DNA from: Bacteroidales bacterium
GTDB taxonomy: Bacteria > Bacteroidota > Bacteroidia > Bacteroidales > PUMT01
Length of the DNA: 34,480 bases
Assembly: GCA_007132365.1 (NCBI GenBank)
Contig: SLOS01000374.1
Span: 1 to 34,480, forward strand
Direction: 5' to 3'
In this document: positions 9,922-34,480 of the stretch, piece after piece
How the letters are laid out: each line of letters begins with the position of its first letter
How positions within the stretch are numbered: the first letter of the stretch is position 1
Made by a program: the position numbers and the translations under genes
Notes under the pieces: model-generated
What the model was told of the DNA's origin: nothing
What the model saw: the letters and a program-made list of their open reading frames with translations, nothing else
Databases searched by the model: none

Positions 9922-10501
9922 TAAGGGGTTCCTGGTCAGTACAGTCAACCACTGTTGAAGGTATATTGTGTCCGTAACCACCATCTATTACCACATCGAC
10001 CAACTGCCCGAATTTCTCATGAATCAGCTCAGGATCAGTAGTGTATTCCAGCACCTGATCATCATCGTGTATTGAGGTTGTCAGAATTGGTTGCCCGAAA
10101 TTCTTTACTATTTCCAGAATTATATTATTCCCGGGTATACGTATCCCTACTGTTTTCTTATTGTTTTTGAACAGTTTGGGGACATTGTTGCTTGCAGGAA
10201 GTATAAAGGTAAAGGGTCCCGGGAGATTTTTTCTCAATAACTTGAATACAGAGCTTCCTATGGGCCTTGTATAATCTGAAAGATGCGAGAAATCATGGCA
10301 TATGAATGAAAAATTAGCATCTTTCATCCTTATTCCCTTAATTCTGGCCACCTTTTCAACTGCTTTTACATTGAAAATATCACATCCGAGTCCGTAAACC
10401 GTATCTGTAGGATAAATTACCAGTCCGCCATCACGAAGTATACCCACTACTTTTTGGATTGCCCGTGCACTTGGATTTGAGGGGTGTATCTTAAGGAGCA
10501 T
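9887..10501 (-). CDS. tsaC: L-threonylcarbamoyladenylate synthase (YrdC/TsaC single-domain type)
   Basis: The 204-aa product has YPTDTVYGLGCD, LPGPFTFIL, VGIRIP and STVVD, which are typical of the YrdC/Sua5 fold. Confidence 0.82.
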   Translation of the reverse strand: MLLKIHPSNPSARAIQKVVGILRDGGLVIYPTDTVYGLGCDIFNVKAVEKVARIKGIRMKDANFSFICHDFSHLSDYTRPIGSSVFKLLRKNLPGPFTFILPASNNVPKLFKNNKKTVGIRIPGNNIILEIVKNFGQPILTTSIHDDDQVLEYTTDPELIHEKFGQLVDVVIDGGYGHNIPSTVVDCTDQEPLIIRQGIGELKF

Positions 10502-10554
10502 ATAAATTATTTTTTTAATAAAACTCTGGAGTGCGCTTAAAATTTATAAAAAGT

Positions 10555-10651
10555 GGGTAAGCTACTTATATCGCACCGCTACAACCGTCTACCCTTGCTT
10601 CCTTCCGGACCTGGGGGAGTTTAACGGGAGCTGGTCGTATAAGACTTACCC
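10555..10651 (-). ncRNA. ffs: signal recognition particle RNA (small bacterial 4.5S type)
   Basis: The minus strand reads GGGTAAGTC...CCCAGGTCCGGAAGGAAGCAAGGGTAG...GCTTACCC. It contains the universal SRP domain-IV core AGGUCCGGAAGGAAGCA. The 5' GGGTAAG pairs with the 3' CTTACCC to close an approximately 97-nt hairpin. It sits in an otherwise empty 270-bp intergenic gap. Confidence 0.82.
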
Positions 10652-10655
10652 GGTG

Positions 10656-10663
10656 CAAAGGTA
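10656..10663 (-). promoter_or_regulatory. Bacteroidota sigma-A type -7 box (TAnnTTTG) for ffs
   Basis: The minus strand reads TACCTTTG-cacc-GGGTAAG. That is an exact TAnnTTTG match 4 nt upstream of the predicted RNA 5' end. Confidence 0.5.
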
Positions 10664-10774
10664 GTAAAACAGAGATATTTTTCCAATTTTAAGGCTTTCA
10701 ATATTCAAAAAACCAATATATTTACCCTGTAAACCAAAATTTATATTTGTTTAAAATCACAAAAATGATCAAAT

Positions 10775-11311
10775 ATGGAAGAGAATAAACAACCCGCGTT
10801 GATCAAAAGTACTATGAATTATGGTGCAATGCTGGGACTGGCTCTTGTAATCTATACGATTCTTCTCTGGATGATGGATGCATTGGCCAGAACAGGCCTT
10901 GCCTCTGTAAGCTATATAATTATGATAGCAGGTATTGTATTTGCCACCAAAACATTTCGTGACCAGGAACAGGGAGGATTCATTACTTATAGCCGTGCTT
11001 TGGGCGTCGGAACCCTGACCTGTGTTTTTGCCGGGGTAATTACAGCATTTTTTACCTATTTGTTGTATACAGTCATTGATCCCGGACTTATTGATAAAAC
11101 CTATGCTACAATGGAGCAGGCATACTATGATGCAGGCATGACCGACAGCCAGATAGAGATGGCCATGAGCATGGCAAAACGCTTTACCAATCCGGTTATG
11201 ATGTCGGTTCTGGGTTTCCTTGGCAGTGCATTTATGGGTTTCATATTTTCACTGATAACATCCATTTTCCTGAAAAAAGAGGAAGATCCCTTTGAACCTG
11301 ACACAGTTTAA
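10775..11311 (+). CDS. DUF4199-type membrane protein
   Basis: The 178-aa product has 4 predicted TM helices. Its layout (N-terminal MNYGAMLGLALVIY..., central soluble loop, C-terminal TM pair) matches the Bacteroidota DUF4199 family, which commonly precedes a GT2 gene. Confidence 0.65.
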   Translation: MEENKQPALIKSTMNYGAMLGLALVIYTILLWMMDALARTGLASVSYIIMIAGIVFATKTFRDQEQGGFITYSRALGVGTLTCVFAGVITAFFTYLLYTVIDPGLIDKTYATMEQAYYDAGMTDSQIEMAMSMAKRFTNPVMMSVLGFLGSAFMGFIFSLITSIFLKKEEDPFEPDTV

Positions 11312-11332
11312 TCCCTGTTAAATGGATTTATA

Positions 11333-12286
11333 ATGGATATTTCTGTTGTCATACCCCTTTTCAATGAAGAGGAGTCACTTTCTGAGCTTGCGGACCTGAT
11401 AGAAGGGATAATGGCGAGGAATTCACTCTCTTATGAGATTATACTGGTTGATGACGGGAGCACCGACAGATCATGGGAGGTTATCGAAAGGCTTGCTGAC
11501 GGCAACGGGTCAGTAAAGGCCATGCGTTTCAGACGTAATTATGGTAAATCAGCTGCATTGTACTCCGGATTCATGTTATCGGAAGGAGATGTAGTAATAA
11601 CTATGGATGCTGACCTGCAGGATGATCCTGACGAGATACCCTCATTATACAGGATGATAAAGACTGAGGGCTTTGATCTTGTTTCGGGCTGGAAGAAAAA
11701 GAGATATGATCCTCTAAGCAAGAGAGTTCCCAGCCGGTTATTCAATTTTACGGCCAGGTTTGTTACAGGGATCAGGTTACATGATTTTAATTGCGGACTT
11801 AAGGCTTACAGGAAGGAGGTTGTTAAAAATATTGAGGTATACGGAGAGATGCACCGGTATATTCCTATGCTGGTCAGAGATGCCGGATATACTAATATCG
11901 GAGAAAAGGTTGTGAAACATCATAAACGCAAATACGGGGTGACAAAGTTCGGGATGGAGCGTTTCATAAAGGGCTTTCTTGACCTTCTGTCACTTTCATT
12001 TGTTGCAAGGTTCGGTAAGAGACCCATGCACCTGTTCGGCACTCTTGGCACCCTGATGTTCATTGTCGGCTTTATTGCAGCGGCTTATCTCGGGGGTTCA
12101 AAACTTTTTTATTTGAGCAAAGGAATCAGGATCGGGCTTGTAACTGAAAGTCCCTATTTCTATCTTTCCCTGACAGCAATGATACTGGGTACCCAGCTTT
12201 TTCTTGCAGGATTTATAGGGGAGCTTATCACGAGGAATTCACCATTCAAGAATTCCTACGAAATAGAGAAAAAAATAAATATTTAA
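11333..12286 (+). CDS. family 2 glycosyltransferase, polyprenyl-phosphate sugar transferase type (GtrB/DPM1/ArnC-like) with two C-terminal TM helices
   Basis: GT-A fold motifs are present: VVIPLFNEEESL, VDDGSTD and DADLQDDP (DxD). A C-terminal hydrophobic pair follows. Confidence 0.85.
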   Translation: MDISVVIPLFNEEESLSELADLIEGIMARNSLSYEIILVDDGSTDRSWEVIERLADGNGSVKAMRFRRNYGKSAALYSGFMLSEGDVVITMDADLQDDPDEIPSLYRMIKTEGFDLVSGWKKKRYDPLSKRVPSRLFNFTARFVTGIRLHDFNCGLKAYRKEVVKNIEVYGEMHRYIPMLVRDAGYTNIGEKVVKHHKRKYGVTKFGMERFIKGFLDLLSLSFVARFGKRPMHLFGTLGTLMFIVGFIAAAYLGGSKLFYLSKGIRIGLVTESPYFYLSLTAMILGTQLFLAGFIGELITRNSPFKNSYEIEKKINI

Positions 12287-26676: not shown

Positions 26677-27861
26677 CTAAATGTATTCTGTTATTACCTC
26701 TTTCAAAAATTTTTCCTCCAGTTTCCGACCGATCCGTTTAAGTACGGTTCGCCTTATCTCCAGCTCAACGGGCAGGTTAGGATCCTGGTGGGCTATATTG
26801 ATCTTTGTGCCTATAACTATCCTTATCTCATCGCTTTCAAGGAGAAGTTTAACGATCTGATCAGCTGGTCCTTTGCCTAATGCGTAATTATGGGTGTATT
26901 CATTGAGTATTTTTGATACCTTGCTGAGCGTCAGAATGCCCTCGGTTACAAGGTCAACACCTTCCATATATGACATGGGCGGAAGATCGGGATCATGAAA
27001 TTCGAAAGTGTCTGTTATCTTCAGATCCAGTTCCCTTGCGACTATATCGCCTGTAGTGCCTCCGGACAAAATCTTTTTTCCCGGAAAATCATTTACAATG
27101 GATGCAAGTCTGGCATCATTTTCATCTTCAAACGGGGGCCCGCTGCAGAGAAGGAGTTTTCTGGGTTCCCTGAAGTAAAGGACGGCGCAGGAGGTGTCAT
27201 CCTGGGCGTTGTAATTGTCATTCCTGAAGGCTGCGTTAAGTATTCTTGACGCAAGCTTTTGCGCTGATATGTGAGGCTGCTGATCAATGATCTCCCTTAC
27301 GAAATCCTGCACATTATCCCATCCCCATCCGAAGGGATATTTTCTTGATCCCATCCCGGACTGGGTTATGCCGTCTGAACAGAATATTATCCTGTCTTCC
27401 TTGCGGGGGCGGAAGTGACAGCTTTTTATCTCTTTACCTTTGTTCTGTTCTGAACTTAAAATAAGGCAGTTCCATTCGGCCTCGAGCGGACTGCTGCCGC
27501 GCATGAGGAATGTGCCGGGGTTATCATATTCCAGTATGCTGGTTCTGGCGTTCATGTCAATATCGACGGCAGTAAATGTGGAGTAACTGATCTTGCGGAC
27601 ACTGCAGACAGGGAGGGTGTTCATTATTATTTCTGCAATGCGGGTTACATCCTTGTGCTCACGGGTAAAATTCAATGCCATTGATGCTGTAAGGGTTGCC
27701 AGGATATTGGCTTTCACACCATGCCCCATTCCGTCGGAAAGAACTGCCACAATTCTGTTCTCTTCCTTGATTCTGCGGGACAGGAATACATCGCCGCAGA
27801 TCCTCTCTTTTCCGTGGTTTTTTTGCTGATAACCAACTTCGACATAGAAACTATTCTCCAT
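26677..27861 (-). CDS. SpoIIE/PP2C-family Ser/Thr protein phosphatase with an uncharacterised C-terminal domain of about 150 aa
   Basis: The PP2C core is ERICGDVFLSRR...VAVLSDGMGHGVKANILATL...IIFCSDGITQSG...DDTSCAVLYF. The preferred start MENSFYVEVGY at 27861 overlaps the hydS-like stop by 11 nt. The ORF track's 27897 start would overlap it by 47 nt. Confidence 0.82.
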   Translation of the reverse strand: MENSFYVEVGYQQKNHGKERICGDVFLSRRIKEENRIVAVLSDGMGHGVKANILATLTASMALNFTREHKDVTRIAEIIMNTLPVCSVRKISYSTFTAVDIDMNARTSILEYDNPGTFLMRGSSPLEAEWNCLILSSEQNKGKEIKSCHFRPRKEDRIIFCSDGITQSGMGSRKYPFGWGWDNVQDFVREIIDQQPHISAQKLASRILNAAFRNDNYNAQDDTSCAVLYFREPRKLLLCSGPPFEDENDARLASIVNDFPGKKILSGGTTGDIVARELDLKITDTFEFHDPDLPPMSYMEGVDLVTEGILTLSKVSKILNEYTHNYALGKGPADQIVKLLLESDEIRIVIGTKINIAHQDPNLPVELEIRRTVLKRIGRKLEEKFLKEVITEYI

Positions 27862-29722
27862 CTTCCCCGGGTTTTTCAGGCATTTTGTAAGATTCAATGA
27901 TACTGTTCAGCATAGCCTCTGTTTCCGAAGCGCCTTCCCCGAGAAGGAAACCTATCTGCTGAACCAGGCCCAGATTCTTGTCAATTACATCTGTCACTCT
28001 TTTTATTACCTCCTCTTTTCGCACCTCTGGAACGTAAAGGTCTCTTATAACGGCACCTACAACCTTGTTTTTCCGGATGGTGAATATTGAGACATTATAG
28101 AGGATTTCATTAAAATGTACATCGCGGTTAATAATATTATCGTCATGGCTGAGAACGTATGAAAACAGATTATGGAAGTTGTAGGGCAGCAGTGTTTTAA
28201 GGTCGGCACCCTCCAGCCCGGGAATAACATCCTCTATCATTTTCACCTCTTCGTCCAGAATATTGATAAAGCTTTTATTAGCCTGAATTACCTTAAGGTC
28301 ACTATCCACCAGCACCACGCTGGAGGGGAGCTTCTCAAGCATCGTGCGGGTTGTTTCAAAGGATTCTCTTGCAAGTTGCTGGTCACGCCTTGCATTTTTC
28401 TCCGACTTTTTAAGTGCTGCCTGTGTCTCGGCCAGTTTCTGGTTTGTCTCCCTGAGTGTTTTTATATAGTCATGACGGTTTTTAAGTGTGAAGGTAAGGC
28501 ACATCTCTGTCTTGGCGAGTCCCCGCGCCACTGCAACGGCAAAATCCCGGCAGGAAGGGTATCCGCAGGATGCGCAACCTATTTCGTCAACATTATGTTC
28601 TTTCCCGATCATCTGCAGTATTTCCTGTATCTTCTCCTCATCGGGGTATGGAAGGCGCTGGTCATCTTTTCTGAATTTTCTTGAGAGGTCAAGGGTGCTG
28701 AATTCATCCATCTCTTTCTCCCATGCCCTGAGGTTGAAATCCGCCAGCCTTTTTTTTGCATAAGCTATAACCAGGGCGTGACGAAGATATTTTTCCCCGC
28801 CCCTTGAAGTCCCCGGGCCCATTATACATCCTTCATTATAGAAAAGATTGAAATGCTTTTTTATTGAGTCTATATTTTTTTCAAACTGCCTGACAGCTTC
28901 CAGCATATTATTCCTGCCCTCTGCAGTGATAACCCTACCTGTAAGGAGGTGCTGGTCAATATCCGAAGCTTCCAGTATCCCCGTGCTTACAGGGTAAAGG
29001 GAGCCCTTATATCCTATTGGAGGATCAAAATCGGAAAACTCTACTTTCTTTTCAGTTATGTTGTATTCTGTAAAAAGCTCCCTCAGCTCTGTGAATGTCA
29101 GTACCGAGTCAACTCTGCCATCATCCCTCTGTTTTTTGCCCTCTTTTTTGGTTTCAATGCAGGGGCCGATATAAACGACCTTTACATCTTTACCGTATTT
29201 TTTTCTTACCACTTTTGCTGTTGCTGTCATTGGAGAAACTACAGGGGCAAGATTATCAGTAAGCTCGGGATGAAATTTTTCAATAAAAGAAACGACCGAG
29301 GGACAATTTGCAGTGATATAATATTTCCCTTTGAAATCTGCAAACAGGTCCTTGTATTTACGGGCCACAAGGTCAACTCCGAAGGATGCTTCAAGGACAT
29401 ATTCGAAACCGAGTGCCCTTATCATTTCCACAAACTTCCTGTAGTCGGTAATGTCATGAAACTCTCCTGAAATACTTGGTCCGCAAACTGCAGCAACTTT
29501 ATATTCCGACCTCAGCAGCTCTTTGGTCTCCTCTTTTGAATCCTGATAGCTGATGGCACCGGGAGAGCAGACTTTCAAACAGTGACCGCAACCTATACAT
29601 GCATTATGCATCACTTCCGGATAGTCCATATGTGCCTCTACCTTAATTGCATTTACCGGGCAGATCCTTACACAGGAATAGGAAAGGTTGCATTTGTTGT
29701 TGTCTATGTTTATAAGGGCCAT
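27851..29722 (-). CDS. putative sensory [FeFe]-hydrogenase-like protein (HydS/HfsB-like): ferredoxin domain, H-cluster-type domain, Cx2Cx4Cx16C motif, coiled coil and PAS
   Basis: N-terminal motifs are CNLSYSCVRICP and CIGCGHCLKVCSP. The hydrogenase large-subunit fold shows variant motifs ITANCPSVV (canonical TSCCPxW), IGPCIETKKE (canonical MPCxxKxxE) and NEGCIMGPG (canonical GCxxGG). These are followed by CASCGYPSCRDFAVAVARGLAKTEMC and a C-terminal PAS (LPSSVVLVDSDLKVIQANKSF...GAVIRDL). Confidence 0.8.
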   Translation of the reverse strand: MALINIDNNKCNLSYSCVRICPVNAIKVEAHMDYPEVMHNACIGCGHCLKVCSPGAISYQDSKEETKELLRSEYKVAAVCGPSISGEFHDITDYRKFVEMIRALGFEYVLEASFGVDLVARKYKDLFADFKGKYYITANCPSVVSFIEKFHPELTDNLAPVVSPMTATAKVVRKKYGKDVKVVYIGPCIETKKEGKKQRDDGRVDSVLTFTELRELFTEYNITEKKVEFSDFDPPIGYKGSLYPVSTGILEASDIDQHLLTGRVITAEGRNNMLEAVRQFEKNIDSIKKHFNLFYNEGCIMGPGTSRGGEKYLRHALVIAYAKKRLADFNLRAWEKEMDEFSTLDLSRKFRKDDQRLPYPDEEKIQEILQMIGKEHNVDEIGCASCGYPSCRDFAVAVARGLAKTEMCLTFTLKNRHDYIKTLRETNQKLAETQAALKKSEKNARRDQQLARESFETTRTMLEKLPSSVVLVDSDLKVIQANKSFINILDEEVKMIEDVIPGLEGADLKTLLPYNFHNLFSYVLSHDDNIINRDVHFNEILYNVSIFTIRKNKVVGAVIRDLYVPEVRKEEVIKRVTDVIDKNLGLVQQIGFLLGEGASETEAMLNSIIESYKMPEKPGEDGE

Positions 29723-29726
29723 TTTT

Positions 29727-29978
29727 TTATGTTATGTTCAAGGTTCGGTTAAGTAAATCCACTATATCTTCCGGTTTAACTCCCTCGTATATTTTATCTC
29801 CTATTTTCAGTATGGGGCCTTTATCACATTTGTCAAAACAACGACTCCCGTGAAAGAAAAACCTTTCCTCAAGGTGGTTGTCTTTTAGAAATTTTTCGAT
29901 GATTCCCATGCATAGCCTGTTGCCTCTTGAGAAGCATGAGCTGCCGAGGCAGATTACTATTTCCTGTTTATCATCCAT
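29727..29978 (-). CDS. thioredoxin-like [2Fe-2S] ferredoxin (83 aa)
   Basis: The Cys pattern is C10-x4-C15-x31-C47-x3-C51 (ICLGSSCF...GSRCFDKCDKGP), the NuoE/HydC-type arrangement. Its stop lies 4 nt before the hydS-like start. Confidence 0.75.
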   Translation of the reverse strand: MDDKQEIVICLGSSCFSRGNRLCMGIIEKFLKDNHLEERFFFHGSRCFDKCDKGPILKIGDKIYEGVKPEDIVDLLNRTLNIT

Positions 29979-30175: not shown

Positions 30176-30640
30176 ATGGATGATCAAACTTCTGTAATAC
30201 TCTCCAGGTATCCCAGGGGGCATCGTGATTGCCTCATTCCCATATTGCAGGACATTCAGGAAGAGTACGGTTATCTATCCGAGTCCTCCGTCATTGAAGT
30301 CGCCCGGTACCTTGGTTTGCCATCAAGTAAGATATTCGGACTGGCAACTTTCTATAATCAGTTTCGTTTTGAGCCCAGGGGGCGTTTTCATATCCGTCTT
30401 TGTCACGGAACATCTTGCCATGTAACTGCTGCATCAGAGATCATTAAGGAACTTGGAAAAAAACTCAGGATAGGTCCCGGGGAGATTTCAAGGGATGGAA
30501 TGTTCAGCCTGGAGCTTGTTGCATGCATGGGAGCATGCCATTTGGCCCCCCTTATGCAGGTTAACGATAATTACCACACCAGACTTGATCCCGCCGGTAT
30601 CAGGGATATAATAGATTCATATATAGAAGGGGAGGAATAA
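30176..30640 (+). CDS. hydC: NuoE-like [2Fe-2S] subunit of an NAD(P)H-linked [FeFe]-hydrogenase (HydC/HndA type)
   Basis: It has LIPILQDIQEEYGYL and the Cys pattern RLCHGTSCHV...ACMGACHLAP (Cx4Cx35Cx3C). Confidence 0.9.
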   Translation: MDDQTSVILSRYPRGHRDCLIPILQDIQEEYGYLSESSVIEVARYLGLPSSKIFGLATFYNQFRFEPRGRFHIRLCHGTSCHVTAASEIIKELGKKLRIGPGEISRDGMFSLELVACMGACHLAPLMQVNDNYHTRLDPAGIRDIIDSYIEGEE

Positions 30641-30642
30641 TT

Positions 30643-32595
30643 ATGTCTTTAAACACTCATATACCTGTTGATAAGGAGTACCTTGTAAACAATGTCCTTT
30701 TGAATGAATCTGCAGATCTTCCGGCCGATGTTGAAAAACTGCTTAAGCTTGTACGCCGGGAAAAAGTGAAATATCCGGTTATTTTTGTCGGAACCGGAAG
30801 TTGCGGACTCATTTCCGGTGCAGGAGAGACTCTTATTGAAATAAACAAGTATTTGTCTGACAGGGATTTAAGAGCCGATGTGGTCGAGACCGGATGTACC
30901 GGTTATTGCTCTATGGAGCCGGTGATTGAAGTCCAGTTACCCGGTAAAACCAGGGTCTCATTTAAAAATGTCACCTCAGAAAAACTTCCTTTTGTTCTTG
31001 ACGGCATGTTTAACAGTATGGTTCCCGTGGAGCATGTGCTGGGACAGTATAAAAGTCCCTCGCTTGAATTGTGGAAGGATGTTCCCTTTATAGGTGAGCT
31101 TTCTTTTTTCTCAATGCAATACAGGAACCTGATGAAAAACTGGGGCCGTATCAATCCCCTCTCCATAGAAGAATACATAGCAACAGGCGGATACAGGTCT
31201 TACATAAAAACTATAAGGAATTATACACATGAGGAGGTTTGCGATATAGTTGAGAAAAGCGGTCTTCAGGGCAGGGGTGGAGGAGGCTTCCTTACGGGGA
31301 AGAAATGGAAGGTTGCCCATACCGTTATGGCTGACCAGCGCTACCTGCTTTGCAATGCTGATGAGAGTGATCCCGGAGGTTTTGCCAACAGGGCGATGAT
31401 TGAGAGTGATCCGCATCGTCTCCTGGAGGGTGTGATCATTGCGGCATATGCAATAGGGACTTCAAAGGCATATATATACATACGCAACGATTACAGGAAC
31501 GCAATAGAAAGACTGGAAAAAGCAGTTGACAGGGCCAGGGATTACGGTCTTCTGGGGCACGACGTATACGGCAGCGGGTTTAACATTGACGTAATTATCA
31601 GAAAAGGCCCCGGTGCGTTTGTCTGCGGAGAAGAGACGGCCATGATAAGCAGTATTGAGGGCAAACGCGGCATGCCAAGGCCCAAACCACCCTATCCGGC
31701 CGTTTCCGGGCTGTTTGGCAAGCCTACGGTTGTAAATAATGTAGAGACCCTGTCAAATATTCCTGCAATCTTTGAAAACGGCCCGGACTGGTTCATGTCC
31801 CTGGGCAATGAGACATCTCCCGGTACCAAGATGCTTGTTTTATCAGGAAAGGTAAATAACCAGGGAATAATTGAGGTACCTATGGGTACCAGTGTAAAAG
31901 ATCTGATTTTTGGAGCGGGAGGAGGAATTCCCGGAAAAAAAAGTTTCAGGGCCGTCCAGATAGGAGGTCCTTCCGGCGGATTCATTACAGCCGATAACAT
32001 TGATATTCCCTATGACTTTGATTCCCTTGCATCAGAAGGTGTCTATATGGGCTCGGGTGTCATGGTAGTACTTGACCAGGATTGCTGCATAATAGATACA
32101 GTAAAATATTTTATGGATTTTATTCAGAAGGAGAGCTGCGGCAAATGCATCCCCTGCCGGGAAGGTACACGCCGCATGCTGGAAGTTTATGAAAATATTA
32201 CAAAACGGCCGGTAGATGAAAACGGCCATACCACGCTTGAACGGTTCAAGGGGGTGATGCAGCTTGAAAGTCTTGCCAGTGTGATAAAAGATACCTCTTT
32301 ATGCGGACTCGGACAGAAAGCTCCCAATCCCGTTATAAGTTCACTGAAATATTTTCGCAGTGAATATGAGGAGCATATATTTGACAGGAAATGCAGTGCT
32401 GGTGTATGCAAGGAGCTGAGGTTATTTTATATTGACGTGGAAAAGTGTACCGGTTGTACGGCCTGTGCACCAAAATGCCCCGAGTCAGCAATAATAGGTA
32501 CAAAGCATCACCCGTTTTTTATTGTTGAAGAGAAATGTACGGGTTGTGGTATATGTTATGATGTTTGTAAATTCAGTGCCATCCTGGTAAAATAG
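30643..32595 (+). CDS. hydB: NuoF-like flavoprotein subunit (HydB/HndC type) with an N-terminal thioredoxin-like domain and a C-terminal 2x[4Fe-4S] ferredoxin domain
   Basis: It has GTGSCGLISGAG...GCTGYCSMEP, the FMN site GLQGRGGGGFLTGKKW, CNADESDPG and the N3-type cluster ESCGKCIPCREG. The C-terminus carries CTGCTACAPKCP and CTGCGICYDVC. The start is 2 nt after the hydC stop. Confidence 0.92.
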   Translation: MSLNTHIPVDKEYLVNNVLLNESADLPADVEKLLKLVRREKVKYPVIFVGTGSCGLISGAGETLIEINKYLSDRDLRADVVETGCTGYCSMEPVIEVQLPGKTRVSFKNVTSEKLPFVLDGMFNSMVPVEHVLGQYKSPSLELWKDVPFIGELSFFSMQYRNLMKNWGRINPLSIEEYIATGGYRSYIKTIRNYTHEEVCDIVEKSGLQGRGGGGFLTGKKWKVAHTVMADQRYLLCNADESDPGGFANRAMIESDPHRLLEGVIIAAYAIGTSKAYIYIRNDYRNAIERLEKAVDRARDYGLLGHDVYGSGFNIDVIIRKGPGAFVCGEETAMISSIEGKRGMPRPKPPYPAVSGLFGKPTVVNNVETLSNIPAIFENGPDWFMSLGNETSPGTKMLVLSGKVNNQGIIEVPMGTSVKDLIFGAGGGIPGKKSFRAVQIGGPSGGFITADNIDIPYDFDSLASEGVYMGSGVMVVLDQDCCIIDTVKYFMDFIQKESCGKCIPCREGTRRMLEVYENITKRPVDENGHTTLERFKGVMQLESLASVIKDTSLCGLGQKAPNPVISSLKYFRSEYEEHIFDRKCSAGVCKELRLFYIDVEKCTGCTACAPKCPESAIIGTKHHPFFIVEEKCTGCGICYDVCKFSAILVK

Positions 32596-32622: not shown

Positions 32623-34347
32623 ATGATAGTAAGGATAGAGGTTAACAATAAAATCATTAAAGCGCGAAAGGGAGAGACCATAATGTCCGCCCTCAGGTCA
32701 GCCGGTATAATGATCCCCTCCATATGCTCAATGAAGGATTTCACTCCTACCGGAGCCTGCAGGATGTGTGTGGTCGAAGTGGAAGGCAGGCAGGGGCTGG
32801 TACCTTCATGTTCACAGCCTGTCAGTGAATGGATGAAGATAAAAACCCATTCTCCCAGGGTAGTGAAATCGAGAAAAACAATAGTAGAACTGCTTTTATC
32901 CAATCATCCCGATGATTGCCTTTACTGTGAACGCAATGGCAACTGTGAACTGCAGACACTTGCCGAAGAGCTGAATGTGAGGGAGCGGCGCATCATGGGT
33001 AAAAAAAACAAATACAAACTTGACCACTCCAGTCCCTCGATTGTCCGCGATCCCGCCAAATGCATACTTTGCGGACGGTGCGTGCGTGTATGTGAAGAGA
33101 GGCTGTCGGTATTTGCAATTGATTTTGTCAACCGGGGAAACAGGACAATAATAGGAACAGCATTTAACAAGGATCTTAACTTTTCAAGTTGTATCAATTG
33201 CGGACAATGCATAATGGTTTGTCCCACCGGAGCCTTATTTGAGAAAGACAGTCTCCCCGAGATCGAAGATGCACTCAATAATCCTGAAAAAACTGTAGTT
33301 GTTCAATACGCACCTTCAGTAGGTGTTACCCTGGCTGAGGAGTTTGGAATCAAGCCCGGGAAGGATATCGGCGGACTGGTAATTGCGGCCCTCAGGAAGA
33401 TAGGGTTTGACCGGATATTTGATACCTCCTTTGCTGCCGATATAGCCGTTGTTGAGATGGCACATGAACTGCTGTCCTTGAAGGGCAAAAAAGACAGAAT
33501 GCCGCTTATTTCAGGCAGCTGTCCCGCCTGGGTGAAGTTTGCAGAACAGTGGTATCCCGATCTTTTGCCGGCTGTGTCATCATGCAAATCACCGCAGCAG
33601 ATGCTGGGAGCAATTCTAAAATCCGGGTATCCCGGGATATCCGGTACAGATGCCGGCAGTATCTTTTCCGTGGCAGTGGCACCCTGCACCGCAAAAAAGT
33701 TTGAGGCACAGAGAGAAGAGATGACCAAAAAGGGACTATCTGATATAGATGCCGTACTTACCACCAGGGAGCTGGCCAAGCTTATAAAACTTTACGGTAT
33801 TGATATGAGCCAGATCGAACCTGAAGTTGCTGATGAGCCATACGGAATGCGTAGTTCGGCCGGCAAATTGTTTGGTGCATCGGGCGGAATGGCTGAAGCC
33901 ATTATTCGCTCCCTGCCATATGCTGCCGGAGCAAAAGAGCCTTCCCGGATAAAATATCAGGAGCTAAGGGGAGGCAGGGGAAGAAAAGAGGCGGAGATAA
34001 GGATTGGTAAAACCACATACCGGTTTGCTGTTGCAGGTGGTATGTCAAATGCGGTTAATCTTATTGAGGATATCCGGGCAGGAAACTGTGAATACGATTT
34101 CGTAGAGATAATGGCCTGCGCCGGCGGATGTGTCAATGGTGGCGGCCAGCCTATAGGTGCTGATGATAATGCAATAAGGGCAAGGATGAAGGCTCTCCAT
34201 GGTATTGATGAAAAGGAAACAATAAGGGTTGCCCATAAAAATCCCAGGATCAGTGAGTTATATGATAATTTTCTTGGCAGTCCCCTAAGCGGAAAATGCA
34301 AATCACTGTTACATACCAGTTATTCGGAAAGAAAAGTTTTATTATAA
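32623..34347 (+). CDS. hydA: [FeFe]-hydrogenase large subunit, M3 (CpI-like) architecture, 574 aa, with non-canonical proton-pathway residues
   Basis: Accessory clusters are intact: a [2Fe-2S] (C35, C46, C49, C63), an HxxxCxxCx5C cluster (HPDDCLYCERNGNC) and two [4Fe-4S] clusters (CILCGRCVRVC, CINCGQCIMVCP). H-cluster motifs read ISGSCPAWV, APCTAKKFE and FVEIMACAGGCVNGGGQP. Confidence 0.9.
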   Translation: MIVRIEVNNKIIKARKGETIMSALRSAGIMIPSICSMKDFTPTGACRMCVVEVEGRQGLVPSCSQPVSEWMKIKTHSPRVVKSRKTIVELLLSNHPDDCLYCERNGNCELQTLAEELNVRERRIMGKKNKYKLDHSSPSIVRDPAKCILCGRCVRVCEERLSVFAIDFVNRGNRTIIGTAFNKDLNFSSCINCGQCIMVCPTGALFEKDSLPEIEDALNNPEKTVVVQYAPSVGVTLAEEFGIKPGKDIGGLVIAALRKIGFDRIFDTSFAADIAVVEMAHELLSLKGKKDRMPLISGSCPAWVKFAEQWYPDLLPAVSSCKSPQQMLGAILKSGYPGISGTDAGSIFSVAVAPCTAKKFEAQREEMTKKGLSDIDAVLTTRELAKLIKLYGIDMSQIEPEVADEPYGMRSSAGKLFGASGGMAEAIIRSLPYAAGAKEPSRIKYQELRGGRGRKEAEIRIGKTTYRFAVAGGMSNAVNLIEDIRAGNCEYDFVEIMACAGGCVNGGGQPIGADDNAIRARMKALHGIDEKETIRVAHKNPRISELYDNFLGSPLSGKCKSLLHTSYSERKVLL

Positions 34348-34389: not shown

Positions 34390-34480
34390 ATGAATAATGC
34401 AGATGATCACAAAAAGCTTCTGATAACACTCAAGGACAGGTGCCGTGTTTGCTATACATGTGTCAGGGAATGTCCCGCCA
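34390..34480 (+). CDS. 5' end of an Fe-S protein gene, probably a second HydS-like or Fe-S sensory protein, cut by the window edge
   Basis: My translation is MNNADDHKKLLITLKDRCRVCYTCVRECPA.... The CxxCxxCxxxCP motif aligns residue-for-residue with the N-terminus of the hydS-like gene (CNLSYSCVRICP). It starts 42 nt after the hydA stop with no terminator in between. Confidence 0.5.
   Translation, partial: MNNADDHKKLLITLKDRCRVCYTCVRECPA

Follow-up and report, generated by a model that had tools for sequence, protein, structure and literature searches.

The window, a 34,480-nt stretch of DNA from a Bacteroidales bacterium (contig SLOS01000374.1), carries the operon of a HydABC-type [FeFe]-hydrogenase. 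The third gene of the operon, hydA, encodes a subunit (HydA) in which a serine replaces the proton-relay cysteine, and further residues along the proton path and around the H-cluster are altered. The features of hydA are as follows, with residues numbered as in CpI, the [FeFe]-hydrogenase of Clostridium pasteurianum.

32623–34347, plus strand: hydA, an M3-type [FeFe]-hydrogenase subunit of group A (HydABC/Bfu type), 574 amino acids, identified from its open reading frame, PDB and Pfam matches and TIGR02512.
33310–33318, plus strand: the A230-P231-S232 loop, which adjoins the 2Fe subsite, as judged from proximity in CpI (PMC5506873).
33457–33480, plus strand: M279 to L286 of the relay helix, read from the codons as E278 (GAG, 33454–56), M279 (ATG, 33457–59), E282 (GAA, 33466–68) and L286 (TTG, 33478–80).
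33481–83, plus strand: K287, a clade-specific residue directly after L286.
33514–33525, plus strand: the P1/L1 motif G298-S299-C300-P301 (GGC AGC TGT CCC), with S299 (AGC) at 33517–19 and C300 (TGT) at 33520–22.
33577–33579, plus strand: S319 (TCA), a retained relay serine.
33679–33696, plus strand: the P2/L2 motif A353-P-C355-T-A-K358, with A353 (GCA) at 33679–81 and C355 encoded by TGC.
33889–33891, plus strand: M423, a valine in CpI and most relatives; clade-specific, it accompanies M353A.
34111–34131, plus strand: the P3/L3 motif M497-A-C499-A-G-G-C503, intact.

HydA contains the full M3 set of Pfam domains, namely Fer2_4, NADH-G_4Fe-4S_3, two Fer4, Fe_hyd_lg_C and Fe_hyd_SSU. The accessory clusters are all represented, by an N-terminal [2Fe-2S] domain, a His-ligated [4Fe-4S] domain and two further [4Fe-4S] domains. 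PAS, kinase and FeS-linker domains are not found in HydA by Pfam, and the sensors of the locus are separate genes. The family class is assigned by NCBIfam models. TIGR02512 ([FeFe] hydrogenase, group A) scores 446.9 bits, above its cut-off of 405.95, and NF040763 (NADH-dependent, group A6) scores 726.3, just under its cut-off of 765. In a phmmer search against PDB chains, the best match is HydA1 of the electron-bifurcating HydABC of Thermoanaerobacter kivui (8a6t) with an E value of 7e-162; that of Acetobacterium woodii (7q4v) matches at 2e-147 and CpI at approximately 1e-132.

The phmmer alignment of HydA with CpI contains no gap over approximately residues 216–419, so the two proteins share their numbering in that span. 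The initial annotation had relied on this coincidence for residues 270–355. T. kivui HydA1 likewise aligns without gaps across the relay region, as does A. woodii HydA1 with a one-residue offset, and no indel in the three alignments brings Cys, Glu or Arg back to the relay positions. A register shift hiding these residues is rejected, since the gap-free alignments and the published assignment of Ser301 in A. woodii HydA fix the register. Gene callers place the start of HydA at Met21 (P0001, 554 amino acids), and window positions 32623–32682 are thereby lost. The match to T. kivui HydA1, however, already starts at residue 3, and the first 20 residues are part of the [2Fe-2S] domain. The 574-residue reading is thus correct, and the numbering does coincide with that of CpI.

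Direct reading of the codons bears out the substitutions E279M, R286L, C299S and M353A proposed in the initial annotation, along with the retention of E282 and S319 and the placement of S299 and C300 on AGC TGT at 33517–33522. In the P1/L1 motif the cysteine ligand of the cluster (C300) is retained and the adjacent relay cysteine has become serine. In P2/L2, which reads A353-P-C355-TAKKFE as described, the methionine over the bridging carbon monoxide is replaced by alanine, and the ligand cysteine and the cyanide-binding lysine are kept. The sequences SGSCPAW and APCTAKKFE thus depart from the L1 and L2 consensus motifs, TSCCPxW and MPCxxKxxE, and the L3 motif ExMxCxxGCxxG is intact. The canonical proton path, R286-E282-S319-E279-(water)-C299, is represented only by E282 and S319. 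The gap-free alignment contains all four cysteine ligands of the H-cluster (C300, C355, C499 and C503 in CpI), and the residues predicted from the sequence to hold the 2Fe subsite, K358, P324/Q325, P231/S232 and M497, are also present, with alanine at 353. The annotation was equally right that the accessory clusters, as detected by Pfam, and the aligned P3 motif are intact. The residue set of HydA occurs in none of the characterised enzymes CpI, T. kivui HydA1 and A. woodii HydA1.

The distribution of these residues was surveyed in the 120 closest protein clusters and in 80 loci from GTDB species representatives, with trees built by neighbour joining only. HydA belongs to a clade composed of clade I, with 33 non-redundant sequences at least 72% identical to it, and the sister clade II, with 10 sequences at 62–67% identity. 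Clade I, clade II and their union each receive 100/100 bootstrap support when the focal columns are excluded. Six of the nine species representatives in clade I are Bacteroidales metagenome-assembled genomes from a Siberian soda lake (Cock Soda Lake). Alkaliphily as a driver is a tentative association, as a poorer proton donor at high pH would be no obvious adaptation.

The four substitutions differ in phylogenetic depth. Changes of E279 to Met or Leu and of M353 to Ala, Ser or Thr are clade-wide, and the change of V423 to Met is nearly so. Among the 33 clade I sequences, residue 279 is Leu in 16 and Met in 15; residue 353 is Ala in 26, Thr in five and Ser and Val in one each, compared with Met in 145 of the other 149 relatives. 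Residue 423 is Met in 29 of 33, compared with Val (100), Thr (22) and Leu (16) among the same 149. The combination of S299, M279 and A353 is present in the independently assembled P0002–P0005, L005, L007, L008 and L009, with different codons for Ser299 (AGC, TCT) between relatives. L286, which lies next to the clade-specific K287, is confined to the HydA of the window (its own cluster entry P0001) and the 91%-identical P0005/L009, where it accompanies the other three residues. Of positions 279, 286, 299 and 353, whose survey in Bacteroidota had been suggested with the initial annotation, two carry changes fixed in the whole clade (E279M and M353A); S299 is specific to a lineage, and R286L is shallower still. 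Judged from the sequences compared, the truly distinctive features are those of the clade, namely the replacement of M353 by a small residue, the change of V423 to Met and an apparently relaxed constraint at 299.

The earlier statement that three of five relay residues are lost is correct for each residue, but it overstated the rarity of each change. The complete set E279/E282/R286/C299/S319 occurs in only 74 of 147 other relatives, and E279 is replaced, by Leu, Val, Gln, Thr, Ser or Ala, in half of the related Bacteroidales HydAs with C299 and M353. Among the top 150 representatives of 50%-identity clusters, residue 299 is non-Cys in approximately 41, residue 353 non-Met in approximately 45 and residue 279 non-Glu in 43, although many of the representatives with altered relay or 353 residues have lost K358 as well and such clustering over-represents fast-evolving lineages. 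The same library contains P0121, a predicted protein of 4122 amino acids with seven HydA-like stretches, perhaps a giant fusion or a tandem array, or else a product of mis-assembly.

Position 299 turns over rapidly in the clade. In clade I it is occupied by Ser (15), Cys (13), Thr (2), Ile, Phe or Asn, and in clade II by Leu (5), Phe (2), Val (2) or Ala (1). Parsimony on the neighbour-joining tree counts at least 15 changes in the 54-leaf clade, compared with at least five in the other 150 leaves. The entropy rank of the column rises from 373 of 546 outside the clade to 63 of 546 inside it, an increase that only two other columns exceed.

This variation is linked to residue 230, which in CpI lies close to the 2Fe subcluster (PMC5506873). 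Asp or Glu at 230 is found only in the clade. Where residue 230 is Ala or Ser, as in the HydA of the window, residue 299 is Cys, Ser or Thr in all 25 sequences. A hydrophobic residue or Asn at 299 occurs only with Asp or Glu at 230 (13 versus 0; Fisher's exact P = 2e-7, with shared ancestry ignored), and the independent events behind this pairing are approximately one in clade II and three more in clade I. P0040 of clade II, for example, combines D230 with F299 and S353. Position 299 is thus not simply unconstrained: in the background of the HydA studied here, a side chain able to form hydrogen bonds is still required. Unless another acidic residue is present, residue 299 apparently has to be protic. 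As D230 is also paired with C299 or S299 (P0018, P0030/31), the sequences suggest that D230 arises first and then allows the loss of the protic side chain at 299.

The surroundings of the H-cluster are conserved. C300, C355, C499, C503, P301, K322, S323, P324, Q325, M497, K359 and N505–Q509 are invariant in clades I and II. S319 is invariant in clade I and present in nine of ten clade II sequences. Within the clade, K358 is Lys or Arg, E282 is kept in 32 of 33 and P231-S232 is nearly invariant. The ratio of nonsynonymous to synonymous substitution rates (dN/dS, or omega) of hydA is 0.11 between the window and L009 (dS 0.42), 0.09 between the window and L001, and 0.058 between L005 and L007. 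For the H-domain, omega is 0.08–0.135 in the clade, compared with 0.04–0.14 in most canonical pairs and 0.29 in one; most pairs are saturated (dS above 2 or not computable), and approximately four clade pairs are informative. Selection on hydA is strongly purifying, which counts against a decaying or cofactor-less domain, although the omega values lie towards the top of those for canonical pairs.

The neighbouring genes of hydA are as follows.

30176–30640, plus strand: hydC, a NuoE-like [2Fe-2S] subunit (Pfam 2Fe-2S_thioredx; NCBIfam NuoE models above cut-off).
30643–32595, plus strand: hydB, a NuoF-like subunit for flavin mononucleotide and NAD(H) with two C-terminal [4Fe-4S] clusters (Pfam Complex1_51K, NADH_4Fe-4S, SLBB and Fer4; NCBIfam nuoF_fam).
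29727–29978, minus strand: a thioredoxin-like [2Fe-2S] protein of 83 amino acids, upstream of the HydS-like gene.
27851–29722, minus strand: a divergent HydS-like homologue of sensory [FeFe]-hydrogenases, 623 amino acids, composed of an H-domain, an FeS domain and a C-terminal region.
26677–27897, minus strand: a SpoIIE/PP2C-type phosphatase, overlapping the 3′ end of the HydS-like gene by 47 nt.
34391–34480, plus strand: the first 30 codons of a second HydS-like gene, cut by the end of the window and encoding a 663-residue protein in relatives.

The order hydC-hydB-hydA recurs in more than 70 related loci. With an M3-type HydA and the genes of its HydC and HydB partners directly upstream, the gene content is that of HydABC/BfuABC (group A3). 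Genes for NiFe small or large subunits are found neither in the window nor in the related loci. The divergent HydS-like gene adjoins hydCBA in relatives too, and its tight overlap with the phosphatase gene is also present there; this suggests that sensor and phosphatase (27851–29722 and 26677–27897) are co-translated. The second HydS-like protein is, in relatives (for example at 11788–13779 of L009), a fusion of an H-domain and an FeS domain with a HisKA/HATPase histidine kinase. From these homologies, hydCBA is flanked by two putative sensors, one phosphatase-linked and one kinase-fused. On the 3′ side of the kinase-fused gene, relatives carry two response-regulator genes, Rex, RibF, HydG and a TM1266-like gene; HydG, identified by TIGR03955 at 496 bits, lies a few kilobases downstream in relatives from clades I and II.

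The arrangement of SpoIIE, HydS and thioredoxin-like genes on one strand and HydC, HydB, HydA and HydS/kinase genes on the other recurs at many other Bacteroidales loci whose HydA is canonical. The variant HydA is thus the positional orthologue of canonical HydA and does not represent an additional copy placed elsewhere, and a redundant paralogue is rejected by this locus-level synteny.

The divergent HydS-like protein has its own peculiarities. Its P1 motif reads ITANCP, with Asn at the position of CpI residue 299, and its P2 motif reads IGPC, with Gly at 353. An Asn is aligned with the ligand Cys499 (FYNE-GC), and the first ferredoxin motif, CNLSYSC, is one cysteine short. From its sequence, the protein may bind [4Fe-4S]H through three cysteines or be degenerate.

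The explanation favoured here, to which we assign about an even chance, is that HydA is the catalytic subunit of a working HydABC [FeFe]-hydrogenase of the NuoE/NuoF-coupled, bifurcating type whose pocket was remodelled in the ancestor of the clade, with Ser and Cys interchangeable at the first relay position and with catalysis probably slower and uptake-biased. The serine-for-cysteine HydA looks like a natural re-tuning in a conserved Bacteroidales lineage, and not like a broken gene. In the clade ancestor, E279 would have been replaced by Met or Leu and M353 by a small residue, with Met acquired at 423 in clade I. In this remodelled background, the first relay position would need just a small hydrogen-bonding side chain, and Cys, Ser and occasionally Thr would interchange repeatedly. 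The hydroxyl group of S299, probably with a bound water, would pass protons between the azadithiolate amine and the S319–E282 end of the path. L286 would be a late and minor surface change beside K287. M423 and K287 may compensate for the altered relay; the roles proposed for these two residues and for D230 derive from sequence covariation and from published descriptions of CpI.

Published variants provide the analogies for an H-cluster that would be slower than that of CpI-type enzymes and shifted towards H2 oxidation. Cys-to-Ser variants at the relay position still incorporate the H-cluster, and those of CaI and CpII keep 14–16% of H2 oxidation and 0.05–1.3% of H2 evolution (PMC9563086). The M353L variant keeps 74% of oxidation and 15% of production, and Thr353 and Ser230 occur naturally in CpII, an uptake-biased group A enzyme (PMC5506873). 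Several observations weigh against this explanation. The Cys-to-Ser variants of CrHydA1 and CpI keep only 0.002–0.1% activity (PMC9563086), so that serine may make a very poor relay if the remodelled pocket offers no compensation. Met279 breaks the canonical water/Glu link between residue 299 and S319. The H-domain omega of the clade, which lies high within the canonical range, would fit some relaxation of constraint, and most dS values are saturated.

The initial annotation had offered three readings: a different proton route, a slow or strongly biased enzyme, or a complex doing something other than high-flux H2 evolution. The sequence evidence narrows the choice and favours a relay that has been remodelled, with a change in rate or bias. 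A role outside hydrogen chemistry is disfavoured by the strong purifying selection, the invariant [2Fe]-binding pocket, the orthologous operon slot and the nearby HydG.

A further and more tentative proposal is that the clade records, in natural steps, how the proton relay of a catalytic group A [FeFe]-hydrogenase of the bifurcating type was re-routed. Glu279 and Met353 would first be lost and Met gained at 423. The relay cysteine would then become freely interchangeable with Ser or Thr, and the HydA of the window would stand at this second step. Asp or Glu would next be gained at 230 beside the 2Fe subsite, and residue 299 would finally become hydrophobic, as in clade II.

Among competing explanations, the one that survives best, though we consider it unlikely, is that residue 299 is irrelevant in the clade. 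S299 would then be a neutral polymorphism, with protons taking another route, such as water in the cavity left by replacement of M353 with Ala or Ser, a path suggested for sensory hydrogenases. The very high turnover at 299 (at least 15 changes) agrees with this, as does clade II, which has Leu, Phe, Val or Ala at 299 with the same operon and a conserved pocket. Sensory enzymes of groups C and D provide a precedent: they have mostly Ala at 299 and Gly, Ser or Thr at 353, lack the relay glutamates, and are nevertheless active via alternative or unidentified paths (PMC10055695, PMC10407848). The restriction of 299 to Cys, Ser or Thr in all 25 sequences with Ala or Ser at 230, and of non-protic residues to those with Asp or Glu at 230, argues against irrelevance, and the outer canonical half-path of S319 and E282 is still conserved.

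It is improbable that the H-domain is crippled and HydA serves as an FeS scaffold or electron conduit, like the HydA of the H-cluster-less NiFe-HydABCSL, with H2 turnover negligible or located elsewhere. C299S and E279 substitutions do nearly abolish turnover in CpI and CrHydA1 (PMC9563086; Duan 2018 cited therein), and HydA homologues without the 2Fe site exist (PMC9304861). Many representatives of 50%-identity clusters with a non-Cys residue at 299 also lack K358, and the A3 HydA of B. thetaiotaomicron is low in activity on its own (PMC12578642). In the clade, however, the residues that hold the 2Fe subsite (K358 or Arg, Q325, P324, S323, P231-S232, M497 and C503) are maintained, and omega is approximately 0.06–0.13. 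The operon also contains no NiFe or other catalytic module, and HydG lies in the same cluster in relatives.

Still less probable is convergence of HydA on a sensor-like, slow H2-binding H-cluster, which would make the complex mainly an H2 or redox sensor or a very-low-flux device. At two of the three second-sphere positions that mark sensory enzymes HydA resembles them, with no Cys299 and a small residue at 353, and it has lost the relay Glu279. The third residue of the triad, M497, is changed in sensory enzymes but does not vary in the clade. Signalling domains such as PAS or kinase are absent from HydA, which keeps the full M3 electron-transfer architecture with HydB and HydC, and the operon is already flanked by two dedicated HydS-type sensors. 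A sequencing or assembly error or a decaying pseudogene has a negligible probability and is rejected, given the intact open reading frame, the same residues in independent assemblies, the differing Ser codons and purifying selection.

The Cys299–Glu279 relay is regarded as essential in prototypical [FeFe]-hydrogenases, and its absence has been argued to mark sensors in groups C and D. Here, a HydABC-type enzyme of group A lacks this relay while under strong purifying selection in an orthologous catabolic operon. A natural serine at the relay position of a group A enzyme was not found described in the searchable literature. The interest lies less in the single protein than in the natural series, comprising Cys, Ser or Thr at 299, Asp230 with a hydrophobic residue at 299, and a separate Asp299 clade. 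Close relatives that span Cys, Ser, Thr, Asp and hydrophobic residues at this position amount to a compact set of natural mutants. They bear on how the second coordination sphere sets proton delivery and catalytic bias, and on whether serine can be a physiological relay. Should protons now enter by way of Asp230 or of water in the Met353 cavity, the series would show an alternative pathway evolving in a non-sensory hydrogenase and would supply ready natural templates for tuning catalytic bias. A published survey filters by motif and discards sequences without the consensus, so the HydA described here would drop out (PMC6085437). This raises the question of whether surveys that require TSCCP and MPC undercount functional hydrogenases in Bacteroidota and soda-lake sediments.

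The HydABC complexes of T. kivui (8a6t) and A. woodii (7q4v) resemble that of the window in the end-to-end match of HydA, the M3 domain set, the NuoE-like HydC and the NuoF-like HydB with two C-terminal [4Fe-4S] clusters. Their HydA1 subunits differ in keeping E279, E282, R286, the relay cysteine and M353. In A. woodii HydA the cluster-ligand cysteine is naturally a serine (TSCSP; Ser301Aw) with no spectroscopic effect (PMC10021017), and a serine at this position has likewise been published for the BfuA of Hydrogenedentota (PMC10021017, PMC11406978, jointly with A. woodii). A. woodii thus varies the ligand position and keeps the relay cysteine, whereas the HydA of the window keeps the ligand and replaces the relay. 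The A. woodii serine corroborates the register of the alignment, and it shows that active HydABC enzymes can accommodate changes in the P1 motif. In the survey, TSCSP is also found in a large HydA clade that spans several phyla, with Ser at the position of CpI C300 (L051, L053, L055, L059–L061, L063–L065, L067, L068, L070, L075, L076 and L078–L080).

The engineered variants CpI C299S, CaI C298S, CpII C169S and CrHydA1 C169S have the identical exchange at this position, but as single mutants in a canonical pocket, whereas the serine described here is natural, accompanied by M279, A353 and M423, and under selection. CpII also has a small natural residue in place of M353 and an altered residue 230 (Ser), but it keeps the relay cysteine, is monomeric and works outside a HydABC complex. 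The sensory enzymes TmHydS (group C) and TamHydS (group D) similarly have no relay cysteine, a small residue at 353 and lost relay glutamates. They belong to other phylogenetic groups, however, lack the [2Fe-2S] and His-ligated clusters, have a changed M497 and, in group C, contain a PAS domain; HydA is assigned to group A by NCBIfam and retains M497 and the S319–E282 half-path. It differs from the H-cluster-less HydA of NiFe-HydABCSL in its conserved pocket and in the absence of NiFe genes from the window and related loci.

Other Bacteroidales HydA clades share the operon and its sensors, and many also lack E279 (Leu, Val, Gln, Thr or Ser), but they keep C299 and M353. One such group has Thr at 279, Val, Ile, Thr, Ala or Ser at 282 and Lys at 286 (P0055, P0056, P0061, P0078, P0087, P0089, P0098, P0101, P0102, P0105, P0108, P0111 and P0114). 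The lack of both relay glutamates in this group suggests, at the level of sequence, that the HydABC enzymes of Bacteroidota are flexible in the outer part of their proton path. A separate Bacteroidales clade has a natural Asp at 299 (SSDCP) with Leu at 279 and keeps M353 (L028, L034, L037, L047, L049, L056, L058, L071 and L073). Asp299 also occurs in L069 and L074, and across the Asp299 set residue 279 is Leu, Val or Ile and HydA lies around positions 10001–11722. The Asp299 clade is the natural counterpart of the C299D mutant, the sole replacement known to preserve activity.

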